NCBI GenBank assembly: GCA_048268245.1
Contig: JBLWVX010000001.1
Location: forward strand, 96,001-160,000
DNA from: Arcobacteraceae bacterium
GTDB taxonomy: Bacteria > Campylobacterota > Campylobacteria > Campylobacterales > Arcobacteraceae
Reading direction: 5' to 3'
DNA length: 64,000 bases
The notes below the pieces were generated by a model, which saw only the letters and a list, made by a program, of their open reading frames with translations, was not told the origin of the DNA and ran no database searches. The position numbers and the translations under genes are program-made. This document shows positions 30,266-56,658 of this stretch, piece by piece; positions within the stretch are counted from its first letter, which is position 1, and each line of letters begins with the position of its first letter.

Positions 30266-32374
30266 ATGCAGTTAACAAACATTACAACTAGAACAAATCT
30301 TTTAATAGCATTTATCTCTATATCTTTTACTTTTATTATTTCTGTTTATTTTCAATATAAAAACTTTGAAGAAGAAATAAAACATGTAAAAGAAGATTTT
30401 ATTGAACTAAAAAAAATTGAAATAAAAACTGAAGTTTTAAGAGTTTATAAAAGTATAGAAAAAAAAGAAAAAGAAATTAATAATAAAATAAAAGAAAACC
30501 TAAAAAAAAGAGTAGCTCTTGCTCATACCATAGCTACTTCGATATATGAAGATAATAAAAACATTAAAAGTGATGAAGAAATTAAATATTTAATTGTTAC
30601 AGCCTTAAAAAATATTTCTTTTACAAATAAAAGATCTTACTTTTTTATAAATAAAAATGATGGTAAAGCAATACTTTTTAATACAAAATCAATGCTAAAT
30701 AAAAATATAAATAATTGGAACTTAAAAGATAAAAAAGGTAAAGCCTTTATTCAAGAACAATCAAAAATAGCATTAACTAAAAAAGAAGGTTTTTTAAAAA
30801 CTCACTTTGTTAAACCTGATTTAAAAGATAATATTCAATATCCAAAACTAAGTTATGTAAAATTATTTTCCCCTTACAATTGGCATATTGGAACAGGTGA
30901 ATATATAGATGATGTAGTCAAAGATACACAAGATACTATTTTAACTGATATTGCTAATATTAGATATGGAAAAGAAGGATATATTTTTGTAAATAGAATT
31001 GATAAAAAATCTTTAATTTTTAATGGAGTAAAACTTGACAAACCCAAAGATTATACAAATACAAAACTATTTAATATTCAATTAGAAAGTATGCAAAAAG
31101 GTGATTTTTTTCAATATAATTTTAGAAAACTAAATACAAAAAAAGAATTTCCTAAAATATCTTTTGTAAAACAATATCATAAATGGGGTTGGATTATTGG
31201 AACTGGCTTATATATAGATGAAGTTAATAGCCATATTGAGCTAAGACAAAAAGAAGTAAAAAATAGTATTGTATTACAAATTATTAGTTTAATATTAGTT
31301 TCTATTAGTCTATTTTTATTAGTTTATTTTATCTCAAAAAATATATCTGAAAAAATAAAAAAGAATATTGAAAACCTTGTAAGTTCCTTTAAAGTAGCAT
31401 CAAAAAATAGTAAAAAAATAAATACATCTTTACTAACTTATGATGAGTTTGAAGACTTAGCAAATAGTTTAAATCTGACTCTAAAATCAAGAAATAAAGC
31501 TATTCTTAAACAAAAAAACTATTTAGATATCATAGATGAAAATGTTATAACCTCTTCTACAGATAAAGAAGGGATAATAACAAATGCTAGTAATGCTTTT
31601 TGTAATATTTCTAAATATTCAAAAAAAGAACTTATAGGTTCTTCACATAATATAATCCGTCATCCAGATGTTCCCAAAAAGTTTTATGAACAGATGTGGG
31701 AAACTTTAAATAGTGGTAAAGTATGGAAAGGTGAAATAAAAAATCTAAGAAAAGATGGAAAAGAGTATTGGGTAGATGCAATAATCCAACCTATATATAA
31801 AAATAAAGAAATAGTTGGATATACAGCTATAAGACATGATATTACAGATAAAAAGAAAGTTGAATACTTATCAATAACAGATGAATTGACAGGATTAAGA
31901 AATAGAAGATTCTTTAATGAAGTAATTAAAAAGGAATTATCAATAGCTAAAAGAAATAAATCTTTTCTTACATTTATGATGTTAGATATTGATTACTTTA
32001 AAAAATATAATGATACTTATGGACATCAAAAAGGAGATGAAGCTTTAAAAAAAGTGGCAAAAGCTTTAAAAAGTTCATGTAAAAGAGGTGGAGATTATTC
32101 TTTTAGACTAGGAGGAGAAGAATTTGGTGTTTTATTTATAAGTGAAAATACCCAAGGTTCAGAAACCTTTGCAAATAATTTTTTAAAAGAAGTTGAAACA
32201 TTAAATATAGAGCATAAAGAAAGTTTAGTATCAAAAAATATCACTGTCTCAATTGGCTTAGTTACGAAACAAGCTAATACACTTAAAAATGAAGACGAAT
32301 TATACAAACTAGCTGATGATGCTTTATATGAAGCAAAAGAAAATGGAAAGAATCAAGTAGTAGTAAAAGAGTAA
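30266..32374 (+). CDS. Cache-PAS diguanylate cyclase
   Basis: Two Cache repeats (WHIGTGEYIDD, WIIGTGLYIDE), PAS, GGEEF with RxxD I-site (RGGD). Confidence 0.92.
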   Translation: MQLTNITTRTNLLIAFISISFTFIISVYFQYKNFEEEIKHVKEDFIELKKIEIKTEVLRVYKSIEKKEKEINNKIKENLKKRVALAHTIATSIYEDNKNIKSDEEIKYLIVTALKNISFTNKRSYFFINKNDGKAILFNTKSMLNKNINNWNLKDKKGKAFIQEQSKIALTKKEGFLKTHFVKPDLKDNIQYPKLSYVKLFSPYNWHIGTGEYIDDVVKDTQDTILTDIANIRYGKEGYIFVNRIDKKSLIFNGVKLDKPKDYTNTKLFNIQLESMQKGDFFQYNFRKLNTKKEFPKISFVKQYHKWGWIIGTGLYIDEVNSHIELRQKEVKNSIVLQIISLILVSISLFLLVYFISKNISEKIKKNIENLVSSFKVASKNSKKINTSLLTYDEFEDLANSLNLTLKSRNKAILKQKNYLDIIDENVITSSTDKEGIITNASNAFCNISKYSKKELIGSSHNIIRHPDVPKKFYEQMWETLNSGKVWKGEIKNLRKDGKEYWVDAIIQPIYKNKEIVGYTAIRHDITDKKKVEYLSITDELTGLRNRRFFNEVIKKELSIAKRNKSFLTFMMLDIDYFKKYNDTYGHQKGDEALKKVAKALKSSCKRGGDYSFRLGGEEFGVLFISENTQGSETFANNFLKEVETLNIEHKESLVSKNITVSIGLVTKQANTLKNEDELYKLADDALYEAKENGKNQVVVKE

Positions 32375-39619: not shown

Positions 39620-41500
39620 ATGATATTTAAAAATATAAAATTTCAATACAAAATCTATATAATTACCTTTATATTAATAATATTTTTTATCTTTATAACT
39701 TATATTTCAAATTTAAATAATAAACATATATTTGAAAATTTAGAAAACTTAAAAAATACTAATTATTCACTACAATCAACTTTGATTTTATTATCTGATG
39801 TTGAACATTTACAAAGGTTAATAATAGAATACACAATGTCCTCAGATAAAGGTTTAATTGAGCCAATAGAAAAATATTTTGATAAAGTTTCAAATCATTC
39901 TATACCAAATATTTCTAAAAACAATAATTTCTCTTATATCTATAAAAAGCTTTTAGATAATATAAAACAGTATAAGAAAAATTATGAGATAGCTAAAAAA
40001 CAAATACCTTTAAATTTCACTTTAAGAGAAAACTTAAGAAATAATAGTAAAAAACTAGAAAATCAACTTGAACAAATTTATAAATTTACGGAGAAAAAAG
40101 ACTCATTAATAAAAGTAATTTTAATAAGAAAAACTTCTTTAGAAATAGAACGTTCTGTTATAAGATATTTAGAAACAGATAATAGAGTACATATAAAATT
40201 TATGAAAAATAATTTTAGTATTATAGAAAATAACTTTAAGTTGTTAGAAAAATCAATCAAAATTGATAAAAAGATAATTAATCAAATATCTAATACAATT
40301 AAAGAATTCAAAAAAAATGTAAATCAAACAATTGAACATTATAGAACATATTCAATGCTTACAAAAGTAGTAATACCAGGAGATGTTTATGAGATTTATT
40401 TTTATGCAGAAAAATTAAAAACATTAACTCTTACAAAAATTGATTCTGTTCAAGAAATGATTAAATACTATTCAGAATTGAATAAGAAATTTAATTTTTA
40501 TGGAAGTATAATTTATATATCATTAGTTATATTAAGCTTTATTCTTATTATTCGTATGTTACAAAAGCCTTTAGAAGATCTTACAATAATGTTTCAAAAA
40601 CTTTCTAAAGGGGAGGATGATGTATCTATTCCTGCTTATACTTATGATGATAATATAGGTAAATTAATCCAATCAGCTGATATGTATAAACAAAGAAATA
40701 AAGAGACTAAAGAACTTTTAAAACAAACTCAAGATTACAAAAATAATCTTGAAATAAAAGTAGAAAATGAAATAAATATAAGAAGAGAACAAGAAAAAGT
40801 TTTATTACACCAAGCTAAACTAGCTTCAATGGGTGAAATGATAGGTGCAATAGCACATCAATGGAGACAACCTTTAAATGAATTAAGTATACGTATTCAA
40901 AAAATTAAATATACTTATGCAAAAGGTAAAATAGATGATGAATATATTCAAGAGTTTATTTATAAAAATAAAAAAACGATAGATTTTATGAGTAAAACTA
41001 TCGATGATTTTAGAAACTTTTTTAGAATTGATAAAGAAAAAATACAATTCAAAGTGAAAAAAGCCATTGAAGATATTATAGAAATTCAAACATCTCAACT
41101 CAAAAACTATAATATCAAAGTAGAAATTTTAGGACAAGAGTTAGTAATAAATGGATTTAAAAGAGAATTTCAACAAGTAATTGTAAATCTTCTTAGTAAT
41201 TCAAAAGATTCATTTATATCAAAACAAATCAAAGAACCTGTAATTAAAATTATCATTGATAAAAATAAAATTCTTTTCCAAGATAATGCAGGAGGTTTTT
41301 CAGAAGATATTATAGAAAGAGTTTTTGAACCTTACTTTACTACAAAAGAACAAGGTGAAGGAACTGGAATTGGTTTATATATGTGTAAGATGATTATAGA
41401 AGATAACATGAATGGAAAAATATCTGCATCAAATGAAAATGATGGTGCAGTAATTATGATTGAATTTAATAAAGAGGAAGTTAAAAATGCAACAAATTAA
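39620..41500 (+). CDS. membrane sensor histidine kinase with HAMP domain
   Basis: TM, helical periplasmic domain, TM, HAMP, IAHQWRQP, DNAGG, GTGIGL. Confidence 0.9.
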   Translation: MIFKNIKFQYKIYIITFILIIFFIFITYISNLNNKHIFENLENLKNTNYSLQSTLILLSDVEHLQRLIIEYTMSSDKGLIEPIEKYFDKVSNHSIPNISKNNNFSYIYKKLLDNIKQYKKNYEIAKKQIPLNFTLRENLRNNSKKLENQLEQIYKFTEKKDSLIKVILIRKTSLEIERSVIRYLETDNRVHIKFMKNNFSIIENNFKLLEKSIKIDKKIINQISNTIKEFKKNVNQTIEHYRTYSMLTKVVIPGDVYEIYFYAEKLKTLTLTKIDSVQEMIKYYSELNKKFNFYGSIIYISLVILSFILIIRMLQKPLEDLTIMFQKLSKGEDDVSIPAYTYDDNIGKLIQSADMYKQRNKETKELLKQTQDYKNNLEIKVENEINIRREQEKVLLHQAKLASMGEMIGAIAHQWRQPLNELSIRIQKIKYTYAKGKIDDEYIQEFIYKNKKTIDFMSKTIDDFRNFFRIDKEKIQFKVKKAIEDIIEIQTSQLKNYNIKVEILGQELVINGFKREFQQVIVNLLSNSKDSFISKQIKEPVIKIIIDKNKILFQDNAGGFSEDIIERVFEPYFTTKEQGEGTGIGLYMCKMIIEDNMNGKISASNENDGAVIMIEFNKEEVKNATN

Positions 41501-42626
41501 CTCTATATTATATGTAGAAGATGAAAAAAATGTACAAGAGGAATTAGCAGAAGTATTAGAATTTTACTGTAAAAATCTATATTTTGCAGATGATGGGAAA
41601 CAAGGATTAAAACAGTTTATACAATACAAGCCTGACATTATTATAACTGACATTAAAATGCCAATTATGGATGGAATTGAAATGTCTAAGGAAATAAAAG
41701 AGATAAATAAAGAGCAACATATTATATTCACAACTGCTTTTAGTGATATAGATTTTTTTCAAGAAGCAATTGAACTACAAGTTGATGGATATATAATAAA
41801 ACCTATTGATTTAACTCTATTAGAAAATAAAATCGAAAGTGTTATAAAAAATATAAAGTTAAAAGAAGAATTGTTTGAAAAAGAACAAATGTTATTACAA
41901 ACTTCAAAACTAGCTTCAATGGGAGAAATGATTGGTAATATTGCTCACCAATGGAAACAACCTTTATCAATAATTTCTACTTGTGCAAGTAGTCTAATAA
42001 TAGAACATGACCTTGACCAAATAAATAAAGAAAGTGTTCTTGCACGTTCTGAAAATATAATGTCTCAAACAGAGTATTTAAATAATACAATTAATGACTT
42101 TACAAATTTTTTTAAACCCAATGAACATAATAATAACTATAATGTAAAAAAGTTTTTAGATAAATGTATAGATTTAGTTCATAGTTCTTTTGAAGCAAAT
42201 ACTATTGAAACAATGAAAAAAGTAGATGATAGAATCAATTCTTATGGAGATCCAAGCCAATTAACACAAGCAATAATTAATATTTTAAATAATGCAAAAG
42301 ATGCTCTAAAAGCAGCTGAAAAACTACAAAAAAAACTTGTCTTTATAGTTACAGCAAAAGAAGATAATCATAACAATATTGAATTAATTATTAAAGATAA
42401 TGCAGGTGGTATTCCTGAAAATATAATAGAAAATGTATTTAATCCTTATTTTACTACAAAATCAAAAGATGAAGGTACAGGATTAGGTTTATATATTACT
42501 AAAACTATTATTACTAAAAAACTTAAAGGCAATATAAAAGTAGAAAATGAAGTATTTGACTTTGAAGGTATAACATACAAGGGTGCAAAATTTACTATAA
42601 CACTACCACTTGCTGTTCATAATTAG
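41487..42626 (+). CDS. hybrid receiver-histidine kinase
   Basis: REC (YVEDE, TDIKMP) followed by IAHQWKQP, DNAGG, GTGLGL. Start set at ATG 41487 after GAGGA. Confidence 0.9.
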   Translation: MQQINSILYVEDEKNVQEELAEVLEFYCKNLYFADDGKQGLKQFIQYKPDIIITDIKMPIMDGIEMSKEIKEINKEQHIIFTTAFSDIDFFQEAIELQVDGYIIKPIDLTLLENKIESVIKNIKLKEELFEKEQMLLQTSKLASMGEMIGNIAHQWKQPLSIISTCASSLIIEHDLDQINKESVLARSENIMSQTEYLNNTINDFTNFFKPNEHNNNYNVKKFLDKCIDLVHSSFEANTIETMKKVDDRINSYGDPSQLTQAIINILNNAKDALKAAEKLQKKLVFIVTAKEDNHNNIELIIKDNAGGIPENIIENVFNPYFTTKSKDEGTGLGLYITKTIITKKLKGNIKVENEVFDFEGITYKGAKFTITLPLAVHN

Positions 42627-42648: not shown

Positions 42649-43353
42649 TTATAAAAAAGTAGAAAGTAAACCAATTAATCCACCAAAAACAGCACCCCAA
42701 ACAACTAACCATCCTAGATGTTCTCTTATGATTTTTTGAATCATTTCTTTTACCATTTTAGGTGTTAATTCATCTAATCTTTTATTTACAATTGAACTTA
42801 ATTTATTGTAAATATCATCACTTAAATCATCTGATTTTAAAGCCTCATTTAAAACAGCTTGAAAAGAATCACTTTTTGAAATATCAACTATTGAACTTCT
42901 TAGTTTTTTTGTAAAAGGTTCTTTTAGAGGCTCTAAAGCTTGCTCTCCTCCAAACATTCCAAGCATTCCACCAAAAGATGACTCCATAACTGCACTTTTT
43001 AGTGAGTCATAAGCAGGTGTAAAATCTGTTTTATTTAAAATCTTTTCAAAATCAACAGTGTTTTTAGCACTATTTACCTCATCTTCAAAAAATCTTTTTA
43101 GATGTTCTTTTGTAAAGAACTGATTCATAAGTAAATCATGAATTGACTTTTTAAATTGTGAAAATTTATTTTCAATAACACCCGAACCATAAAGATATGG
43201 AACTTTTTCAAAAAGCATATGAATTGCAAGTGTATTTGTAAGTGAACCACTTAAAGCAAAAAGTCCTATTGTAAAAATAGTGTCATAGCCATTTGAATAA
43301 CCATAAGCCATAAGTAACAAAGCAGCTAAATTTGTAATATCAGATTTATTCAT
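42649..43353 (-). CDS. DUF445-family membrane protein
   Basis: TNTLAIHMLFEKVP and HLGWLVVWGAVFGGLIG motifs. Confidence 0.8.
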   Translation of the reverse strand: MNKSDITNLAALLLMAYGYSNGYDTIFTIGLFALSGSLTNTLAIHMLFEKVPYLYGSGVIENKFSQFKKSIHDLLMNQFFTKEHLKRFFEDEVNSAKNTVDFEKILNKTDFTPAYDSLKSAVMESSFGGMLGMFGGEQALEPLKEPFTKKLRSSIVDISKSDSFQAVLNEALKSDDLSDDIYNKLSSIVNKRLDELTPKMVKEMIQKIIREHLGWLVVWGAVFGGLIGLLSTFL

Positions 43354-43420: not shown

Positions 43421-46400
43421 TTATTTTATTTCATAAATAGCAGTAGAACCACTTACTTCATAAGCAACCATAAGTAATGCACTTCCAGTTGGACTATTTT
43501 CAGCTTTTACAAACTTCATACCCTCTGGTGAAATATTTTCATTTTTATTTGATTTAATATATTTAACAAATTTAGAGTTTTGAGCATCTGTAATATCATA
43601 GATTACAATTGCATTTTGTCTTTCTAACCCAACAAAAGCATATGTTCTATCATTTACTTCACCAACAGCTAAAGCTTCTGGTTCAACTCCTTTATTACCA
43701 CTTCTTCTATCTTTTTCTCCATCATCTTGATTAAATAAATTTGGCATAAATTTTGCAGTTAATTTTGATAATTCATTTTTACTATCAAATACTAAAGTAC
43801 CTTCTTCATCCCAAATAGAGAATGATCTAGCACCAAAAGTATATAACTTTTCATAATCACCTGAACTATTTTTACCTAATTCATTATTCACTTTTAAATC
43901 ATTTTCATTTTCATAAGCAAATGCAATTGAAGAGTCTAAAGATAATTTACTAATCTTTGTTTCATTTGCATAGTCACCATACTCTCTTCCATCACCCTCA
44001 TTTGCTGTTACTAAATATGTTTTTGAACCTATCTTATAAGAAGCTATTGAATCTGGTTGATACATACCATATAAACCTTTATAAGTTTTAAGCATTGGAA
44101 TACCTTCTTCTTCAATATCTATAGCATTCTCTTCTTTTGAATGGTCTTTAAATCCTAAAGCAACAACTGAGTCAATCTTTTTAGAAGTAATATCAACAAT
44201 AGCTAATGCATTGTTTTCTTGAAGAATTACATAAGCTTTATTTCCTGAAACAGTTACATATTCAGGTTCTAAGTCTAAAGAAGCATCAACACCATCTTTT
44301 AATACTACATCACTTGGAATTTCAATACCATCAAAAGTTAAATCAGTATATGAGTAGTTACTGTTAACCTCAATTATTCCTACTGAACCTTTTGGATCAT
44401 ATGAGTAGTCACTATTTGGCTCACCCTCATTTGCTACAATGATTTTTGAACCATCTTCATTAAATGTAACCATATCTGGTAAATATCCAACCTCTATAGT
44501 CTTCATATGTGTTCCATTTGTATCAAATACAACAACAAAACCTTTCATTTGTTTTGATGAATCCTGTGAATCTACTTTTTCAACTGCTACTGCAACTTTT
44601 CCATTTGCTACTGCAACTGAGTTTACACTATTTCCGTAAGTTGATAAGTTAACTGATTTATAAGATGTTAAACTCATAGTTGTTTTATCTTTATCATAAA
44701 AAACTGTATTAATATCTAAAGCATTATTAGCTCCATTTGTAGTAAACATTCTATTTGTATCACTATCAAAAGCTACAATCTCGCTTCCACCTTCTATTGA
44801 AGTTTCTAATACAGCAAGCTTTTCAAAAGAGTTTAACTTTGGTGTTTCTTTTAACTCATCTAAGTTTTTAAATGGTCCTATATATCCAATAGTTGATTCT
44901 TTTTGAGCAAGAGTAGAAGATTGAGACTTCATAGGGTGTTGTGTTACAACAGATAAATATCCATATCCATTTGCTAAATTACTATACCAAAATGGTGAAG
45001 TCGTTTCAGAATCAAGAGGAGTTGTAAATGTTCTAGTTAACTCTTTAGTTTTAACATTATAAGCCCAAACAACATTATTCTCATGTTTACCTGTATCTTC
45101 ACCAATCATTAGAATGTCAGAGTTCTCTAAGAAAGTAACATTGTCAGGATTTGAAATACCATTTATGTCACAACTATTATTTGCATAAACAGAACCACTA
45201 TCATAAGTAGTTGGTATTCCACTTATTACTGCATTCATGTTTTTTACTACATACTCAGAGTCAATTGTAGTATCAGCAGTATCTTTTGCTGTTTGAGTAT
45301 TTACATCTAAAGAGTAAACAGCCCCACATTGATTATATGCTACTTTAATATCATTATTTCCACCAATGTCATATTTTGTGTTAGTTGTTCCACTTTTTTT
45401 ATTATCTTCCATTCCTCTTTCAACTGAACTCATTGATACATATAATTTTCCTGAGTTTTTATCAAAAGTAATACCCTCTTCTTTTCTAAACTCAGTTGTA
45501 GCTCCCATATAAGCAGCGTATCTTCTAGACTCTAATCTTGAAGCAGCTTTTTGCATTCCTTCTTTTAGGTTTAAACACTCAAACCCAACACTTGTATTAG
45601 TTGCAGTATAACCTGTAGGACAAGTACCATCACTATTTCCAGCTACTGTATCAAAAATATCTGAGAATTTAATTGCATCATTTGTTGCAATATTTCCATC
45701 TTTATCTAAATATTCTCTAATTTCACTATCTGTTGCATGACCTAAGTTAACCCATGTAATATCAGCTTCGCCAGCACCAACTCCAACTTGTGAAGTCTGA
45801 TTCCACTTAGCAGCATATAATGTACCTGCACTTAAATCTTTTGCTTTATCAGCAACAAACATAAATAGTCCAACATTTGTTCCATCATCTGATAAATATA
45901 CAGTTTTATTATCAGGCATTACATATGCTAACTCATGCGACATTCTTCCCATTGAGTAGTGTTTTGTATATTCTGGTTTACCATCTTTGATTTTTACTTC
46001 TGGATTCCAACCATAGTAGTATGGTGACATTTTAGTAGCATCACCTTTCCAGAATTTTGCAACCTCATCATAATACTTATTCCCTGTTAATCCAGTATTT
46101 GAATCGGCACCTTGCTCCACAGCTTTAGCATCTGGTTCATACTCTTCTGAACCTAAGTGAGATTCCCAAGGTGTTTTTTGACCTGCACAGTGAACAAAGC
46201 CACCAAATTCATCTTTTTGAGAGATAAACTTCATACTATTTTCTTTTGGACTTAATTCACCAGTTTGCTCATTTTGCTCTAACTCTACCATGTACATAGA
46301 GCCAACTTGACACTCAAACTGAGATACCATATATAAATTTCCATCTTTATTTAAAAATGATGTATAATCAAGTCCCGAACCAACTCCACTATTTGTACCA

Positions 46401-47185
46401 TTACAAATATATGGTGAACCATCATCTATAGCTCCTCTACTAAAAGTAATTACATCATCCATATAATCTTTTGATAAACCAAATACTTCACCATTATTAC
46501 TATCACCAGTAGCCATAATTGTTTTATATGAAATATTTTGAGTTTTACCATTTATTACAACTTCTGAAGATGCTTGTCTAGTTGTTTTAGTAGCATCAGT
46601 TGTAGGTGTTTGTATTTCTTTGAATTTTACATCTACTTTATTTGCAAACTTTTTACTTACATCAATCTTGATTTTTTTGATTTTTTCTTTTATATCTGCA
46701 TCATCTAATTTCTCAGATAGTTTATCAATAGATGAAAAATCTAAAGCAGAAGAAGAACTTCCTTCGATATCTTCAGGTAATTCAAAAGTTTCTGGAAGGT
46801 TATTTATATCATAATCAATTCCAGTTTTTTTACTCATTTTTGCAATAATAAATGCAGATAAGGCTGCACTTGAAACATTTTCATTTTGCTCAGCAATTGC
46901 AGCAATTGTAAGTTTTGAGCTAGGAGTTGCTTTTAATTCTTTTCCACCTATCACAAACTTACAAGTTTCACCCTCATTATATTTGTATTCCCCATTACTA
47001 TTTGTAGTACCATTAGTATCTCCACATGTATAATCGATATTTGCTAAATTTGGATTTAGATTCAATGTTCCTGTCGAACTTTGTGAATTGGATGTTTGTG
47101 AATAAGAACTTCCACATCCTATAAAAGTAATTGAAGCTAAAATAGCTGAAGCAACAAAACTCATTCTCAAATAATTTCTTTTCAT
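43421..47185 (-). CDS. phoX: PhoX-family alkaline phosphatase fused to choice-of-anchor-I beta-propeller; lipoprotein
   Basis: Lipobox FIGC. PhoX motifs HCAGQKTPWESHLGSEE, GRMSHE, NPDN, IGED. C-terminal ANEGEP, DLEPEY, LQENNA, QPDSIA, ANEGD, GARSFSIW, EPEA, GLER. Confidence 0.85.
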   Translation of the reverse strand: MKRNYLRMSFVASAILASITFIGCGSSYSQTSNSQSSTGTLNLNPNLANIDYTCGDTNGTTNSNGEYKYNEGETCKFVIGGKELKATPSSKLTIAAIAEQNENVSSAALSAFIIAKMSKKTGIDYDINNLPETFELPEDIEGSSSSALDFSSIDKLSEKLDDADIKEKIKKIKIDVSKKFANKVDVKFKEIQTPTTDATKTTRQASSEVVINGKTQNISYKTIMATGDSNNGEVFGLSKDYMDDVITFSRGAIDDGSPYICNGTNSGVGSGLDYTSFLNKDGNLYMVSQFECQVGSMYMVELEQNEQTGELSPKENSMKFISQKDEFGGFVHCAGQKTPWESHLGSEEYEPDAKAVEQGADSNTGLTGNKYYDEVAKFWKGDATKMSPYYYGWNPEVKIKDGKPEYTKHYSMGRMSHELAYVMPDNKTVYLSDDGTNVGLFMFVADKAKDLSAGTLYAAKWNQTSQVGVGAGEADITWVNLGHATDSEIREYLDKDGNIATNDAIKFSDIFDTVAGNSDGTCPTGYTATNTSVGFECLNLKEGMQKAASRLESRRYAAYMGATTEFRKEEGITFDKNSGKLYVSMSSVERGMEDNKKSGTTNTKYDIGGNNDIKVAYNQCGAVYSLDVNTQTAKDTADTTIDSEYVVKNMNAVISGIPTTYDSGSVYANNSCDINGISNPDNVTFLENSDILMIGEDTGKHENNVVWAYNVKTKELTRTFTTPLDSETTSPFWYSNLANGYGYLSVVTQHPMKSQSSTLAQKESTIGYIGPFKNLDELKETPKLNSFEKLAVLETSIEGGSEIVAFDSDTNRMFTTNGANNALDINTVFYDKDKTTMSLTSYKSVNLSTYGNSVNSVAVANGKVAVAVEKVDSQDSSKQMKGFVVVFDTNGTHMKTIEVGYLPDMVTFNEDGSKIIVANEGEPNSDYSYDPKGSVGIIEVNSNYSYTDLTFDGIEIPSDVVLKDGVDASLDLEPEYVTVSGNKAYVILQENNALAIVDITSKKIDSVVALGFKDHSKEENAIDIEEEGIPMLKTYKGLYGMYQPDSIASYKIGSKTYLVTANEGDGREYGDYANETKISKLSLDSSIAFAYENENDLKVNNELGKNSSGDYEKLYTFGARSFSIWDEEGTLVFDSKNELSKLTAKFMPNLFNQDDGEKDRRSGNKGVEPEALAVGEVNDRTYAFVGLERQNAIVIYDITDAQNSKFVKYIKSNKNENISPEGMKFVKAENSPTGSALLMVAYEVSGSTAIYEIK

Positions 47186-47237: not shown

Positions 47238-47270
47238 ATTTTAATAAAGAAAAATTACAAGAAAGTTACA
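47238..47270 (-). promoter_or_regulatory. Pho-box-like tandem repeat plus -10 box for phoX
   Basis: Minus strand TGTAAC-TTTC-TTGTAAT-N10-TAAAAT. Confidence 0.75.
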
Positions 47271-47304
47271 AAAAAACAATGGTTACCAAGAAGGTTAAAG
47301 CTTT

Positions 47305-47340
47305 AAAGAAATTATCTTATCTTAGATAGTTCTTTCTTTT
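47305..47340 (-). terminator. probable terminator of the four-gene operon
   Basis: Minus strand AAAGAACTATCT-aagata-AGATAATTTCTTT imperfect stem after the stop at 47359. Confidence 0.45.
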
Positions 47341-47358
47341 TTAAAGCTTAAATAGATT

Positions 47359-47673
47359 TTATTTAAACAATTTTACATAATTATGTTCAGGAGTCTTTCG
47401 TAAGAAAAAAACAAGCTTAAAGGGCTTCTTTTCAAGCTTTACGAAAGAGTGTTTCTTTAAAAATGGGTATCTCTTAGTAACCATGATTTTATCATTTTCA
47501 TCTAGTATATTATAGTTATATAAACCACATTTATTTTTACTGTTACTTTTACAAATAACTTTTGCTTTTTGTGTATTTATATCATAAGAAACATCTAAAT
47601 TTATTGTATAACTAACAGGATGAGCGATACCAAAACTAAATAAAAAACTCAATATTAATAAAACTTTATTCAC
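47359..47673 (-). CDS. small exported hypothetical protein
   Basis: Signal peptide ending GIA|HP; two Cys; overlaps the DUF1007 gene. Confidence 0.75.
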   Translation of the reverse strand: MNKVLLILSFLFSFGIAHPVSYTINLDVSYDINTQKAKVICKSNSKNKCGLYNYNILDENDKIMVTKRYPFLKKHSFVKLEKKPFKLVFFLRKTPEHNYVKLFK

Positions 47674-48151
47674 TTGAAACTCCTAAACAAAAATCATACT
47701 CGCTTTTTTGAACATCCAATTTAGTATGAGAACTAACTTCATTTAATTTATATGCCATATAAATTTTCTCATCCATTGTACACATTGTAAACACTTCATC
47801 TAGTTTTATATCAATATCAAAAGTAAGAGAAACTCTTCGTTTCTCAAACTTAACATCAATGTTAGAAGGGTTTATTTTGTACTCTTCATTATCAGCTAAG
47901 AATATATTATAGTTATTATTCTCAAGTGTTTTAAAATGTACCTTTATAAACTCTTCTTTTTCATTTAAGTCAAATTTTTTATTAGAGTTTTTATCAAAAT
48001 CAAAAAGTAAAACCCTTGAATTAAGCTTATCAAACAACCATTCATTTTTTATTTTTCCATCTTCAAAAAAGATATTTGAATCTATAAAAAAATGAGGGTG
48101 TGCCTTTAAACTAACAGTAGCTATAAATAAAATAACTAAAATCTTTTTCAT
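47666..48151 (-). CDS. DUF1007 (ZevA-like) periplasmic metal-binding protein
   Basis: Signal peptide then AHPHFFID; WLFD; EF-hand-like DKNSNKKFDLNE; adjacent to an RcnA/ZevB-like permease. Confidence 0.75.
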   Translation of the reverse strand: MKKILVILFIATVSLKAHPHFFIDSNIFFEDGKIKNEWLFDKLNSRVLLFDFDKNSNKKFDLNEKEEFIKVHFKTLENNNYNIFLADNEEYKINPSNIDVKFEKRRVSLTFDIDIKLDEVFTMCTMDEKIYMAYKLNEVSSHTKLDVQKSEYDFCLGVSSE

Positions 48152-48879
48152 ACTAATAAAAATACTCCTAATCCTAATAATAAAACAATTGCCCCGTAAG
48201 TTAAAATATTCATAAACATCTTGTAGCTATTAAACTTTTTATTTTTAACCTGAGTAGCAAGTATAGCTGCTAATGAAATAGTAAGACCCATACCAATACT
48301 CATAGTTATAGCACTTAGAATACCTAAGTTTATATACCCTAGAATCATTGAAAATAGTACTATTGTCATAACTCCTGGGCAAGGTACTATTCCTATTGAT
48401 AAACTAACAGCAAAAAGATTTTTATTCTTTAACTTTTGAGTTTTTTCTTCTTCATTTCTGTCTTTAATTACTTCATATAATAAATACAAAGCAATTAAGA
48501 TTATAAATACAGCAGAAACCTTATACATATTGGCATTTATCTCTTGAAAATGTTTTGTAACTGACCTTTGAAAAAAAAGATATAAGACCCCAGTTATTAA
48601 AAGGGCTGATACTGTATGAATAATTGAAGTTAAAAAACCTGCTTTAAAAGCCTCTTTTATTTTTGCTTCTTTTGCCAAAAAGTAACTAGCAATTACCATC
48701 TTACCATGACCTGGTCCTAAAGCATGAACTAAACCATAAAGAAATGACACAAATAAAATAGAGAAAAAAATCATACTTTCACCACTTTCTAGCCTATCAA
48801 AATAATCAGAAATCAGTAGGTTTAACTCTTGTTGTTTTGAAACTATAAAACTTAAAAAACTTGCATAAAACTCTATCAT
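48148..48879 (-). CDS. RcnA/ZevB-like nickel/cobalt-family metal transporter
   Basis: YGLVHALGPGHGK and GIVPCPG motifs; multiple TM helices. Confidence 0.88.
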   Translation of the reverse strand: MIEFYASFLSFIVSKQQELNLLISDYFDRLESGESMIFFSILFVSFLYGLVHALGPGHGKMVIASYFLAKEAKIKEAFKAGFLTSIIHTVSALLITGVLYLFFQRSVTKHFQEINANMYKVSAVFIILIALYLLYEVIKDRNEEEKTQKLKNKNLFAVSLSIGIVPCPGVMTIVLFSMILGYINLGILSAITMSIGMGLTISLAAILATQVKNKKFNSYKMFMNILTYGAIVLLLGLGVFLLV

Positions 48880-50624
48880 TTTTGAACCTTTTGTAAATGT
48901 GTCATTTGAGCATCTTTTATTTTTTTATGAACATTTTTTGTAGGTTTAATATGAGTGTCTCTACCATAAATATAACTTTGTTCATCAACTATTACTTTAT
49001 ATGCTTTATTTAATTTTAGAGCTCTTTGTTTACTTGGTATTATAAGATGAGTGATATCTTCTTTTAATTTTTCTATTTCATTCTTTTTTAATTTCCAATT
49101 TTGTTTTAAAACAAGTTCAGGATTTTCTAGTTTAGATATCAAATCTCTTTCAATATTTTCACTATCTTTTTCCCACTCTTTTACAAAAAACTTATTTATT
49201 ACTTCTTCATTGGATCTAAACTCATCTCCTGAACTATTTAACCTTAAATATCTAACATATTCAGTTTGTCCATCATCTAAAACTCTATCTTTTACACCTT
49301 TTAAATTTTTTTGACTCCAATGATACCAACCATATGACATATCTACTCCTTCAAACTTCCTTTGAAATACAAAAGTAGAATCAGCAGTTGCTCCTATATT
49401 ACTATGACACCCCATACAAAAAAGTGTCTCCTCATATGTTTGAGGTCTTAACTCACCTTTTTTATCTTCAATAAACCCTTGATATAACCAACCTCTTTTA
49501 TTACTTAATCCAGTTTCCATATTTCCTAAATATACATCAACTCTTTCTGGGAAATCATGTTTTTCTTTTATTTCTGCATAACCTAGATTTAAAAGTTGAG
49601 TATAGTTATTCCAGTGATGTTTCTTTGCATATCTAAACTCTTTTATTCTTGATGCCATTTGTACTTCATTATTTTTAATATCTAAATATCTTACAGTATG
49701 AGCAAACTCAGTACCAATAGGATATAAACCAGGTGCAATATTTTGCTTTCCATCTTCTAAAAGCTTTTTTGCTTCTCCTACATAAGACATAGAAAAATCT
49801 TTTAACTTTCTTGTTTTCAAATCATATTTAGGTGTCATCCAGTTAAAAACAACTGTTGTTGCTAAATCTAATTTATTATTTTGGTTTAAATCAACTCCAT
49901 ATTTTCTTTCATCTACTTCTTTAATCAAAATATCTTTTTGTTTTATTAAAGATTCAATTACAGCTAAATTTATAGAATATAACTCTTTATCAAATACGCC
50001 TTTTTCATTTAAATAAAAACTCTTAGAAAGTCTAATCAACACATCATCAAAACTTCCATTTGTAGGCCAAAAAGTTCCTAAAAAAGGATAGTATGCAAAA
50101 GCCCTCCAGCCTGTATATTCACCTTTTTTATCTATATCAAAGCCATCTTTATCAAAAGAAAAAGCTACATCTGGTATGTAACCATCCCATTTACCATTGT
50201 TATTAAAATCCCAAGATTTTGAAATATTTTCAAGTTTATCTTTTAAAATTACTTTTCCAAATTCATTTTTATAATTGTCCTTTTTTACATAAGCTAATAT
50301 TTCTTCATCAGAAATATTTTTTATTTCATTAGTTCTATCTTTAAAAAGATTAGTCCATGGGTTTTTAAAAGCAGAAGATGGAAAATCATATGCTTCTTGT
50401 AAATCTGCATCTTCTAAAGTAAAATTAGGTTCTTTATTTTTTGTATGACAGCTAAAACAGGGATTATGTAAAATATTTTCATTCAAAGCATTTACTGTTT
50501 TTGTATAACATTGACTTGAAATATATGCTGTTTTATTATATAAACTTTTACTTTTTAAATCTTGTGCAAAACTATAATTTGCAAATAAAAATAGAGTTGT
50601 AAAAAGTATATTTTTCTTATTCAT
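48876..50624 (-). CDS. exported uncharacterised protein with two CXXCH motifs (putative diheme c-type cytochrome)
   Basis: Signal peptide SFA|Q; CFSCH (50459-50445) and CMGCH (49418-49404); Dx[DN]xNG-like loops. Confidence 0.75.
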   Translation of the reverse strand: MNKKNILFTTLFLFANYSFAQDLKSKSLYNKTAYISSQCYTKTVNALNENILHNPCFSCHTKNKEPNFTLEDADLQEAYDFPSSAFKNPWTNLFKDRTNEIKNISDEEILAYVKKDNYKNEFGKVILKDKLENISKSWDFNNNGKWDGYIPDVAFSFDKDGFDIDKKGEYTGWRAFAYYPFLGTFWPTNGSFDDVLIRLSKSFYLNEKGVFDKELYSINLAVIESLIKQKDILIKEVDERKYGVDLNQNNKLDLATTVVFNWMTPKYDLKTRKLKDFSMSYVGEAKKLLEDGKQNIAPGLYPIGTEFAHTVRYLDIKNNEVQMASRIKEFRYAKKHHWNNYTQLLNLGYAEIKEKHDFPERVDVYLGNMETGLSNKRGWLYQGFIEDKKGELRPQTYEETLFCMGCHSNIGATADSTFVFQRKFEGVDMSYGWYHWSQKNLKGVKDRVLDDGQTEYVRYLRLNSSGDEFRSNEEVINKFFVKEWEKDSENIERDLISKLENPELVLKQNWKLKKNEIEKLKEDITHLIIPSKQRALKLNKAYKVIVDEQSYIYGRDTHIKPTKNVHKKIKDAQMTHLQKVQK

Positions 50625-50650
50625 TATTTGTCCTCATCTAAAATTTTGTG

Positions 50651-50683
50651 ATTATAAAGAGATAAAATTACAATTTAGTAACA
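50651..50683 (-). promoter_or_regulatory. Pho-box-like tandem repeat plus -10 box for the two-CXXCH operon
   Basis: Minus strand TGTTAC-TAAA-TTGTAAT-N10-TATAAT. Confidence 0.75.
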
Positions 50684-50713
50684 ATTTTATTTATGGTCAC
50701 TAAAAAAGGTTAC

Positions 50714-50746
50714 TGTTACCTTTTTGTAATCAAAGAAAACTACAAT
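50714..50746 (+). promoter_or_regulatory. Pho-box-like tandem repeat plus -10 box for the olsF-like gene
   Basis: Plus strand TGTTAC-CTTT-TTGTAAT-N10-TACAAT, then AAGGAG RBS. Confidence 0.75.
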
Positions 50747-54119: not shown

Positions 54120-56234
54120 TTATTTATAGTGCATCTGCTTATAGCCTTCAAGCCTTTTTTTGTAAGCAGAGTTTAGCATGGGGTTTTTTGAATCTAAAAA
54201 ATCAATAGCTAAACACTCTTGATTTCCTCGACCAATTCTTCCTAAATATTGGACAAGTCTACCATAATATGAAATTGGTGTAGCAAACATTATCGTATTT
54301 AGGTGAGGAAAATCTATTCCCTCTCCAAAATAAGAAGTTGTTGCTAAAATTAAAGATGATTCTCTAACCTTATTCATATTTTCAACTTGCTCTTTTTTAT
54401 TCATACTTCCATGAATACTCACATACTCTATTTTTTCTTCAAATAAAAGATTTTCCAAAATATTTATATGCTCAATTCTATCTGTTAGAATTAAAATCTT
54501 TCTAGATATATTATCTTTTATTTGCTGAATTATTAAGTTATTTCTAGCTTCATCAATACAAAGTTCATTAATTATAGTTGCATAATTATCAGCTTCACTT
54601 GTAAATTCAGTTCTTATTATCTTTAGCTTATTAGTATGAGTTCTTTTCTTTTTATACTCATATGCAACTTCACCTAATTGTTGAAATAAAATAGGTTGTA
54701 ATCCATCTTTTCTATTTGGAGTTGCACTTAAACCTAGAATATATTTTCCCTTGAAATTTTTAATAATTTGCTCAAAAGTAACTGCTGGAATATGATGGCA
54801 TTCATCAACTATCACAAAAGAGTATTTGTTGATAATCTCAGGAGCATTTTTTAAACTTTGCATTGTTGCAATATCAATTATTCCATTTAATTTATTTTTT
54901 CCTTTACCTAAGTAACCTACATCTTTTTTATTGTAATCAAAGTAATCAACAAATCTTTCAATCCACTGGTTTAAAAGCATATTTTTATTTACAACTATCA
55001 TTGTACTAACAGCTCTTTGTTCAAACATCTTAGCACCAATCAATGTTTTCCCAAAACCAGGAGGAGCTACACAAATAGAAAAATCTGTTTTTAAAATCTG
55101 TTTTATTGCTTCATCTTGTTCAGGTCTTAAAGTAAATTTCACTTTTTTTGTATGTATTTGCTCAAAGTGTCTTTTATCATCAATGGTAAACTTAACACCA
55201 TTTTCATTAAAAAAATCACATACTTTTGTTTTAAGCCCTCTTGGAAGCATAAGATGATTCTCATCTTCTTCAAAACCTTGAATAACCCTTGGAGTATTAT
55301 ATAAGGGCTTTCTAAGACTTAATAAGACTTTGATTTGAGGGTTCTCAAAAGAAGCAAAGGATTTAAGCTTATTTATTAATGACTTTGATAAATTTGCAGT
55401 TGGAATATAAATAAAATCAAATAAAACCATCTCTATCATATCAAGTGGAAAATCAATATTTCCAAAATCTTTTTCATCATTTGCAGAACTGCTTACTTGA
55501 GAAAACTTATAAATAGTCTCTTTATTTATTTTTGAGACATTATTTAAAACCATCCATTGGTCTTCATAAATCTTATTTGTATTAGTATCAATAAAAACAG
55601 TTTTATTCTTTTTTCTATAATTTAAATGTAGTGGTAACTCTATACTATTTCCAAGACTAGCTTTTGTAGCAAACTCTTTATTTGGATAAAGTTTTGCAGA
55701 AATATTTGCTTTTTTCATTACAAACTTACCAAAATTGTGTACTATTTTAGAACTAACTGGCTCCTCAAAAAAAATCCATGCAATTAAACTATTATAAGAG
55801 TTCAACTCATAATATGCTCTAATATTTAAAGAGTTTAAAGCAATTTGCAATTTAAATTTATCTTCATCAAGTATTTCAAAAGCTATAAATTTTGAATTAT
55901 TATTTGAGTCAATACAATAAGTTGCTAAGTGAACTAAACCTCTTAAATGTGACTCTATGTCATGATTTGTAATAGGAAGGAAATCTTCCCCTTTGAAAGT
56001 TTGAGTTACAGGATAAAAGCCTTGTTTATTTCCATCTTTACTAATCCATTTTTTTGCATAAATATCACTTCTTGCAAGAAATAGAGATTTAAAAATCTCT
56101 ATCTTTTCATCTTTTGTAAAGTTTTTCTTTAACTTAGCTTCTTCTTGTATTTGAAACTCTAAGGCTTTAATCTCCTCTTCTATTTGTTTCTTTTGAGAAT
56201 AAAGTGCTTCTAGTTTTATCTTAAGATTTTTCAT
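54120..56234 (-). CDS. SF2 (ResIII-type) DEAD/DEAH helicase with N-terminal degenerate primase-like domain
   Basis: LRPEQ, APPGFGKT, DECHH, LSATP, QYLGRIGR. The N-terminus resembles a TOTE-type AEP domain. Start set at ATG 56234. Confidence 0.82.
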   Translation of the reverse strand: MKNLKIKLEALYSQKKQIEEEIKALEFQIQEEAKLKKNFTKDEKIEIFKSLFLARSDIYAKKWISKDGNKQGFYPVTQTFKGEDFLPITNHDIESHLRGLVHLATYCIDSNNNSKFIAFEILDEDKFKLQIALNSLNIRAYYELNSYNSLIAWIFFEEPVSSKIVHNFGKFVMKKANISAKLYPNKEFATKASLGNSIELPLHLNYRKKNKTVFIDTNTNKIYEDQWMVLNNVSKINKETIYKFSQVSSSANDEKDFGNIDFPLDMIEMVLFDFIYIPTANLSKSLINKLKSFASFENPQIKVLLSLRKPLYNTPRVIQGFEEDENHLMLPRGLKTKVCDFFNENGVKFTIDDKRHFEQIHTKKVKFTLRPEQDEAIKQILKTDFSICVAPPGFGKTLIGAKMFEQRAVSTMIVVNKNMLLNQWIERFVDYFDYNKKDVGYLGKGKNKLNGIIDIATMQSLKNAPEIINKYSFVIVDECHHIPAVTFEQIIKNFKGKYILGLSATPNRKDGLQPILFQQLGEVAYEYKKKRTHTNKLKIIRTEFTSEADNYATIINELCIDEARNNLIIQQIKDNISRKILILTDRIEHINILENLLFEEKIEYVSIHGSMNKKEQVENMNKVRESSLILATTSYFGEGIDFPHLNTIMFATPISYYGRLVQYLGRIGRGNQECLAIDFLDSKNPMLNSAYKKRLEGYKQMHYK

Positions 56235-56658
56235 GAGCAATTGCGGATGGACCAACTACAATATTATTGATTTTTTGTTCAATCTCATTATATCTACTTT
56301 TTAGCTCAGAATTTTTTCGAATTCCTCTTCCTTCAAATTTTCCCTTAGGGTCAATTATAAGTTCGTTATATCGCATTTCACCTATAACTCTACCCTCTTC
56401 TAAAATCTGAACTTCATTACAATCAATTTTACCATCAAAAAGGCCATTTACTACTAGATTATTAGCTTTTATATCGCCAATAACCTCACCTTCTGTTCCA
56501 ATTGATATAACATCAGCTTCTAAAATAACACCTTCAAACTTTCCATCAATATGTACAGTACCTTTTGTACTAATACCACCTATTATACAAGTGCCTGCAG
56601 CAACTACTGTTGCTCCATTTGATGTTGATCTCTTATTAGACTTATTAAAGACTCCCAT
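56221..56658 (-). CDS. bactofilin (polymer-forming cytoskeletal protein, CcmA-like)
   Basis: VHIDGKFEG, VIGDIKANNLVVNG beta-helix repeats; downstream of an M23 peptidase. Confidence 0.92.
   Translation of the reverse strand: MGVFNKSNKRSTSNGATVVAAGTCIIGGISTKGTVHIDGKFEGVILEADVISIGTEGEVIGDIKANNLVVNGLFDGKIDCNEVQILEEGRVIGEMRYNELIIDPKGKFEGRGIRKNSELKSRYNEIEQKINNIVVGPSAIAHEKS

Follow-up and report, generated by a model that had tools for sequence, protein, structure and literature searches.

The window analysed here is a stretch of 64,000 nucleotides (G000:C1:96001-160000) from the genome of an Arcobacteraceae bacterium, G000 (2,681,560 bp, 57 contigs, 28% G+C). Three transcription units lie close together in it: a gene for a PhoX-type phosphatase (phoX), an operon headed by the gene of a secreted di-heme protein, and olsF, the gene of an ornithine-lipid synthase (Table 1). 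Their promoters share one architecture, in which two direct TGTWAY hexamers with an 11-bp period end exactly 10 nt upstream of a TAnnnT -10 box. An earlier note on this DNA had proposed the three sites as a candidate Pho box, and direct reading of the sequence bore out all three at the positions it gave. They are, very probably, the Pho boxes of a phosphate-starvation response regulator, for which we infer binding, activation and a response to phosphate from the evidence set out below.

The gene labels used in the note also hold at the protein level. What it called phoX does encode a PhoX domain (PF05787, 74.2 bits against a gathering threshold of 24, residues 326-705), fused to a choice-of-anchor I domain (PF22494, 288 bits; choice_anch_I in NCBIfam, 467 bits); the N-terminus of this protein reads ...ITFIGCGSS and a twin arginine is absent. 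The two CXXCH motifs for which the di-heme operon had been named are C56/C59/H60 and C403/C406/H407 of the 582-aa product of its first gene. The genes for the di-heme protein, a NicO-like membrane protein, a DUF1007 protein and a 104-aa secreted protein are consecutive, with overlapping starts and stops. The 'olsF-like' gene can be called olsF outright, its product matching NF052615, the equivalog for the fused N- and O-acyltransferases, at 839 bits (cut-off 620) over residues 1-567 of 570.

Promoter geometry. The -10 boxes lie 52 nt (phoX), 26 nt (di-heme gene) and 17 nt (olsF) from the start codons (ATG at 47185, 50624 and 50764). A consensus scan found no sigma-70 -35 element at 16-18 nt from any of the three -10 boxes. 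A second hexamer at phoX, TATAAT at 47201-47196 beside the ribosome-binding site, was considered as the main -10 box and rejected; it is kept in the relative G001 and lost in G002 and G003, while the box-linked -10 is retained in all three alike. The additional hexamers reported near the boxes were confirmed as well (GGTTAC at 47281-47286, GGTCAC at 50695-50700 and GGTTAC at 50708-50713, all on the plus strand). That at phoX is the counterpart of the hexamers upstream of the olsF box; of these, GGTCAC (at -19 relative to the box) is conserved within the genus only. Extra in-phase half-sites (at -11 and -22) were rejected as a conserved part of the architecture, no offset of a direct copy being found more than once in 46 promoters.

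Table 1. Features discussed in the text, with positions in the window unless a contig is named
Feature	Position	Strand	Basis
Predicted Pho box and promoter, PhoX fusion	TGTAAC 47270-47265, TTTC, TTGTAAT 47260-47254 (TGTAAT 47259-47254), 10 nt, -10 TAAAAT 47243-47238	minus	sequence read
Predicted Pho box and promoter, di-heme operon	TGTTAC 50683-50678, TAAA, TTGTAAT 50673-50667 (TGTAAT 50672-50667), 10 nt, -10 TATAAT 50656-50651	minus	sequence read
Predicted Pho box and promoter, olsF	TGTTAC 50714-50719, CTTT, TTGTAAT 50724-50730 (TGTAAT 50725-50730), 10 nt, -10 TACAAT 50741-50746	plus	sequence read
PhoX domain + choice-of-anchor I domain fusion, 1254 aa, probable lipoprotein	43421..47185	minus	Pfam, NCBIfam
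DUF445 protein, downstream of PhoX fusion	42649..43353	minus	Pfam
Secreted di-heme protein, 582 aa, PF27085 (precomputed Pfam)	48876..50624	minus	two CXXCH motifs
NicO-like membrane protein	48148-48879	minus	Pfam
DUF1007 protein	47666-48151	minus	Pfam
104-aa secreted protein	47359-47673	minus	start overlapping the end of the DUF1007 gene
OlsF, bifunctional ornithine-lipid synthase, 570 aa	50764..52476	plus	NCBIfam NF052615 equivalog
PhoB-like response regulator/kinase pair, downstream of pstCAB-phoU	G000:C4:31650-33694 (regulator 31650-32324)		synteny, NCBIfam

Chance control. Open reading frames (ORFs) of at least 90 aa take up 90.8% of G000. Its intergenic DNA amounts to 243,527 nt, of which 100 first-order Markov simulations were made. 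Three patterns were counted: the strict word, a 17-mer (TGTWACNNNNTTGTAAT); the looser box, TGTWAY-N5-TGTWAY; and the full architecture, which is the looser box followed by N10-TAnnnT. The strict word has four copies on both strands of G000, three of them in the window, where ~0.85 would be expected as calculated from the single-word counts of 2801 and 1635; with N10-TAnnnT attached, only the three window sites remain. The looser box has 25 copies, 22 of which are outside ORFs of at least 90 aa, and its 20 intergenic copies compare with 2.00 +/- 1.36 in the simulations (maximum 6). For the full architecture, nine intergenic sites were observed against 0.12 +/- 0.32 simulated (maximum 1).

Boxes elsewhere in the genome. 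Absence of the box at pstS had been set beforehand as the refuting test, and the box is present there (AGTAAC-CAAAA-TGTAAC-N10-TATACT, one mismatch, 35 nt before the ATG). The genome scan that the note called for, aimed at ppk and other phosphorus genes, found the motif at ppk2, at a phn operon and at pstC (TGTAAC-CATTG-TGTAAC-N10-TATAAT). There are 10 perfect matches to TGTWAY-N5-TGTWAY-N10-TAnnnT in G000, and the nine that are intergenic lie 5' of phoX, the di-heme operon, olsF, pstC, phnF, a Cj0069-family gene, an LpxH-like gene with a patatin gene, a PhoH2-like gene and a 34-codon ORF. Sites with one mismatch serve pstS and ppk2 (family score of the latter 375 bits, cut-off 302). The boxed phnF is followed by an ABC ATPase ORF, phnD (280 bits, cut-off 261) and eight more co-directional ORFs. 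We read this run as a phn C-P lyase operon; phnF and phnD are its only members with family matches, and the ORF taken for phnJ matched none.

The pst cluster on contig C4 has the order pstS, a gene for an EAL/GGDEF protein, pstC, pstA, pstB, phoU, a gene for a 124-aa membrane protein, an OmpR-type response regulator gene and a histidine kinase gene. The second of these, downstream of the pstS box, encodes 577 aa with EAL and GGDEF domains (L001:2854-4587 (+); G000:C4:25854-27587), and its place between pstS and pstC hints at a link from phosphate starvation to cyclic di-GMP.

Position weight matrix. From 40 relatives, the genes orthologous to olsF, pstS and phoX were collected, and the best pattern match was located in each upstream region. 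This gave 64 loci in all, of which the 12 belonging to G000 or to the three genomes nearest to it were left out; a further nine of the remaining 52 were dropped with a pattern score <11 (olsF L016, L027, L028, L029, L031 and L032; pstS L052 and L054; phoX L078), so that the final position weight matrix (PWM) holds 43 sites from relatives only, all of other genera. Its conserved core is G2, T3, A5, Y6, C7 and G13, T14, A16, Y17, C18. The sites were selected without regard to columns C7, A8-9, C18 and A19-20, which are conserved too (C7 in 29/43, C18 in 28/43); this makes the repeat unit a 9-bp repeat, TGTAACCAAnn, present twice. Position 4 of the first repeat is A in 33 sites, T in seven and C in three.

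Scanning G000 with this matrix gave 18 positions of at least 16 bits among 5,359,130. The five highest are pstS (33.6 bits), pstC (31.1), olsF (28.9), phnF (26.5) and phoX (24.5), and the box of the di-heme operon scores 19.2 bits. Thirteen of the 18 are intergenic, and one of the five inside called ORFs is the ppk2 box, 40 nt before the ppk2 ATG. The scan also returned an 18.7-bit box (L256:163-198, G000:C6:61063-61098) with the gene of an M20-family peptidase (Pfam) 39 nt downstream, possibly a further member of the regulon.

Conservation across relatives. Among further genomes of the family, 18/19 have the box in register at pstS, typically as AGTAACCAAAATGTAAC-N10-TAnAcT between flanks that cannot be aligned, and 13/15 have it in register at olsF. 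At PhoX-type genes it is in register in eight of nine more distant loci, the start of the ninth gene not having been located. The di-heme gene has a box wherever it heads its own operon, which is the case in five of 10 loci, one of them in another genus; in the other five it stands behind a PhoX, phytase-like or choice-of-anchor gene. This box is kept in G001, G002 and G003, and in G022, of another genus, as TGTTAT-CATTT-TGTAAT-N10-TATAAT. At olsF, genome G022 is one of the exceptions: an IS110 transposase gene stands between olsF and the retained promoter with its olsF-type box, and olsF may there be uncoupled from phosphate control. The insertion (IS110-family, L065:117-1316, G022:C1) lies between olsF and the di-heme gene.

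The LpxH-like gene has a box in 12/19 orthologues (L003:2154-2189 and L195-L205) and the Cj0069-family gene in 10/13, while for ppk2 the count is 7/30 at a threshold of at least 14 bits and 13/30 at a threshold of at least 11 bits, with a weaker, TGTAAA-type proximal repeat and a strong TATAAT. The boxed LpxH-like gene was found in 13/24 family genomes and is therefore an accessory gene. At both the PhoH2-like and the LpxH-like gene the -10 box lies close to the start codon. The distance to the ATG is 6 nt at the PhoH2-like gene, and among the 12 boxed LpxH-like orthologues it is 6 nt in 11 and 7 nt in one. This is the spacing expected of a leaderless mRNA, whose first nucleotide would be the A of the start codon. 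Such geometry would be hard to explain unless the assigned hexamer were the real -10 box. G000 has a second LpxH-like paralogue at C22:25070-25651.

In a genome from another family of the order (G025), the pstS box reads TGTCAT-N5-TGTCAC (L059) and olsF is preceded by three units with an 11-bp period, TGTCAT, TGTCTC and CGTCAC (L027). Inside the studied genus, too, TGTCAC is seen at olsF. The 'Arcobacter-type Pho box' of the note consequently stands as a Pho box and falls as a distinct type, since TGTCAC is found within the genus and TGTCAT/TGTCAC in another family. The motif reads as the classical proteobacterial Pho box, a TGTnAY 11-bp repeat with a degenerate fourth position, at which A is preferred.

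The candidate regulator. The note had postulated one OmpR/PhoB-family regulator, which it did not identify in the window. A candidate does exist, at the pst cluster on contig C4, and we infer that it is the protein that binds the box. G000 has 39 OmpR-type (Trans_reg_C) matches, one of which is within the pst-phoU cluster; the best NCBIfam matches of this regulator and of the adjoining kinase are PhoB and PhoR, both below the curated cut-offs, and the DNA-binding domain of the regulator matches that of E. coli PhoB (1gxp) at E = 9e-10. Its orthologue is on the same contig as pstS, at a distance of at most 10 kb, in 20/23 relatives having both; the exceptions are G015 and G016, in which it is far away, and G037, in which it is on another contig. 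A pstS match is present in 25 relatives: all 23 with a box have the regulator, and G012 and G032, without a box, have no regulator match at E <= 1e-45. The co-occurrence of box and regulator is no more than suggestive, the relatives being non-independent. The likely binder of the Pho box is this pst-linked response regulator. A hybrid protein encoded in the window itself (41460-42626 (+); receiver, HisKA and HATPase domains) was also considered as the sought regulator and rejected, being without a DNA-binding domain.

Three other explanations were weighed. The window promoters could be alike by chance or through local duplication in AT-rich DNA, without regulatory meaning: the genome has 28% G+C, and the boxes within 50651-50746 sit 30 bp apart and could stem from a local duplication. 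This is already refuted by the simulation (nine sites against 0.12 expected), by conservation of the box across genera whose flanks have diverged and by the PWM ranking; the box also stands at unlinked phosphorus genes on seven other contigs, and we give the idea practically no credence. The element could instead be a repressor operator or the recognition element of an alternative sigma factor, as it extends over the -35 region, on which both repressors and region 4 of sigma act. We hold this to be very unlikely: a tandem direct repeat with an 11-bp period is the signature of winged-helix response regulators (PMC4415409), the lack of a -35 element fits dependence on an activator, and the gene set is that of the classical, positively controlled Pho genes. 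The remaining alternative accepts an activator site and assigns it to a different protein, either another of the ~38 OmpR-type regulators or a 'non-classical' one like PhosR of Campylobacter jejuni, not linked to pst. The number of Trans_reg_C matches leaves room for it, and the pho regulon of C. jejuni is run by PhosS/PhosR (PMC9449129). Against it stand the synteny of the regulator with pst in 20/23 relatives, the agreement of box and regulator, both present or both unmatched, in 25/25 relatives with pstS, and the pstC box, by which exactly this pair would be auto-regulated; it therefore seems improbable.

Several observations weigh against the reading of the three sites as Pho boxes of the pst-linked regulator. 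Both partners fall below their family cut-offs (regulator 173 bits, PhoB cut-off 296; kinase 136 bits, PhoR cut-off 334), and the solved sequence nearest to the DNA-binding domain of the regulator is CovR, not PhoB, points which likewise favour a different binder. The recognition helix (KTVNVAIKRLK) does not vary among 29 orthologues, that of G025 with its TGTCAY boxes among them; A gives way to C at the fourth box position from one family to the other without any change in the helix, so no covariation of protein and DNA supports the pairing. The training sites of the PWM were chosen by their fit to the pattern, which inflates its core columns, and of the five among the 18 top matches that are inside ORF calls, four resemble false positives. 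The sequence matched at 24.3 bits upstream of arsB (L258:761-796, G000:C3:6761-6796) is palindromic, AGAGTAAC...GTTACTCT. It belongs to a cluster that Pfam shows as arsR-GGACT-arsB and that our own reading extends with arsC, arsD and arsA; next to arsR, the site could serve as an operator for ArsR, as a Pho box or as both. At phoX, the -10 box (TAAAAT) is weak, and a consensus scan found no convincing terminator between the di-heme operon and phoX, an AT-rich hairpin being no better than its shuffles (z = -1.3); read-through from the di-heme operon may therefore add to phoX expression.

The pst-linked regulator acting at Pho boxes would work as follows, by analogy with E. coli PhoB. At low phosphate the kinase encoded next to pstCAB-phoU would phosphorylate its partner response regulator, a dimer of which would bind head-to-tail to the two 11-bp units. 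These end 10 bp upstream of the TAnnnT -10 box and would occupy the place of the -35 element, where the bound regulator would recruit sigma-70 polymerase. The box lies across the -35 position, the promoters are without a -35 element, and activation most probably works by recruiting polymerase. The targets switched on in the window would be the lipoprotein PhoX-type phosphatase, the operon for the di-heme, NicO-like, DUF1007 and small proteins, and OlsF, which would make the phosphorus-free ornithine lipid. Elsewhere the same box would serve pstS, pstCAB-phoU-regulator-kinase, phn, ppk2, the PhoH2-like gene, the LpxH-like gene with patatin, and the Cj0069-family gene, and through the pstC box the regulator and kinase would come under their own control (auto-regulation).

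Comparison with known systems. The Pho box of E. coli sits 10 bp upstream of the -10 box. The element described here resembles it in its 11-bp direct repeats, its TGTnA(C/T) core, a proximal repeat 10 bp from the -10 box and the lack of a -35 element, and it likewise precedes pstS, a phn operon, a phoH-type gene and the regulator's own operon. It differs in preferring A over C at position 4 and in a unit that extends to TGTAACCAA; here it is predicted from sequence. The mechanism proposed is a textbook one, and in architecture, gene set and conservation the element matches a Pho box. PhosS/PhosR of C. jejuni controls a PhoX-type phosphatase, and the PhosR box is a GTTTC repeat. For E. coli the PHO box has been defined as two 11-nt direct repeats of the type CTGTCAT (PMC4415409). 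PhosS/PhosR, from the same phylum as the genome studied here, is a phosphate-responsive two-component system that controls pst and is described as 'non-classical' (PMC9449129); its genes are not linked to pst. In Vibrio cholerae OlsF (VC0489) is PhoB-dependent, PhoBR control having been demonstrated genetically, and ornithine lipid is made at low phosphate (PMC12186959). Placing olsF under a phosphate-starvation regulator is common to both; here, control is deduced from a conserved box, one that in Arcobacteraceae is kept in at least 13 further genera-level genomes. Putative Pho boxes have also been noted at plcP lipid-remodelling clusters of SAR11 and Roseobacter (PMC4796936). Like those clusters, the LpxH-like and patatin genes pair a phosphoesterase with a neighbour connected to lipids and have a Pho box predicted for them; they differ in that the partner is a patatin lipase and not a glycosyltransferase, and in the leaderless geometry. 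In the literature searched, with candidates judged by title or abstract, we found no Pho box named for Arcobacteraceae.

The di-heme protein as a probable partner of PhoX. Both CXXCH motifs of the PF27085 protein are invariant in 13 homologues. There are 2215 homologues, and among the best 120 listed the names shown are 'hypothetical', 'uncharacterized', 'lipoprotein' or 'cytochrome c domain-containing'; the match of the 582-aa protein to cytochrome P460 is sub-threshold (25.7 bits, threshold 27; local Pfam). A PhoX domain adjoins the PF27085 gene in 76/80 loci from named genomes, three of the four misses being at contig ends, and these loci span Campylobacterota, Geobacter, Marinobacter, Thalassolituus, Seleniivibrio, Desulfocapsa and others. 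The di-heme gene is followed by a NicO-like gene in 16 of the 80 loci, by DUF1007 in 15 and by the small protein in 13, and olsF is nearby in eight. No literature relevant by title or abstract was found on a cytochrome partner of PhoX. The gene neighbourhoods point to the PF27085 di-heme protein as a PhoX partner, and the operon's own predicted Pho box is what one would expect if it assisted PhoX during starvation.

PhoX has an Fe-Ca cofactor. The PhoX fusion, a probable Sec-exported lipoprotein without a twin arginine, would therefore acquire its metal cofactor outside the cytoplasm. Tentatively, and with more doubt than confidence, we suggest that the PF27085, NicO-like, DUF1007 and small secreted proteins form a dedicated periplasmic helper module for PhoX with a Pho box of its own, which could supply the metal and fix the redox state of the iron required by PhoX.

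Other observations in the window and the genome. The DUF445 gene is possibly co-transcribed with the PhoX fusion, and it is also next after the PhoX/choice-of-anchor gene in loci L069 and L084-L086. On contig C5 a perfect box with TATAAT (67526-67558 (+); L007, G000:C5:66801-68000) is followed by AAAAGGAG and by the hydrophobic 34-codon ORF (MEIIYITFAC...), which may encode a small membrane peptide of the Pho regulon. Apart from the Pho finding, a 711-aa protein encoded at 54120-56255 (-) of the window has the archaeo-eukaryotic primase domain of TOTE conflict systems and ResIII/helicase domains (Pfam) and is a candidate defence gene.

The Arcobacteraceae are environmental, food-borne and water-borne bacteria, and the result is a testable map of their predicted phosphate-starvation regulon. 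The box gives a physiological context to the PF27085 operon, the Cj0069-family protein, the LpxH-like/patatin pair with its predicted leaderless mRNA and the 34-codon ORF; for the di-heme operon, the predicted direct control by a Pho box and the putative metal-transporter partners are new. The map predicts that, throughout the family, ornithine lipid would replace membrane phospholipid under phosphate stress.

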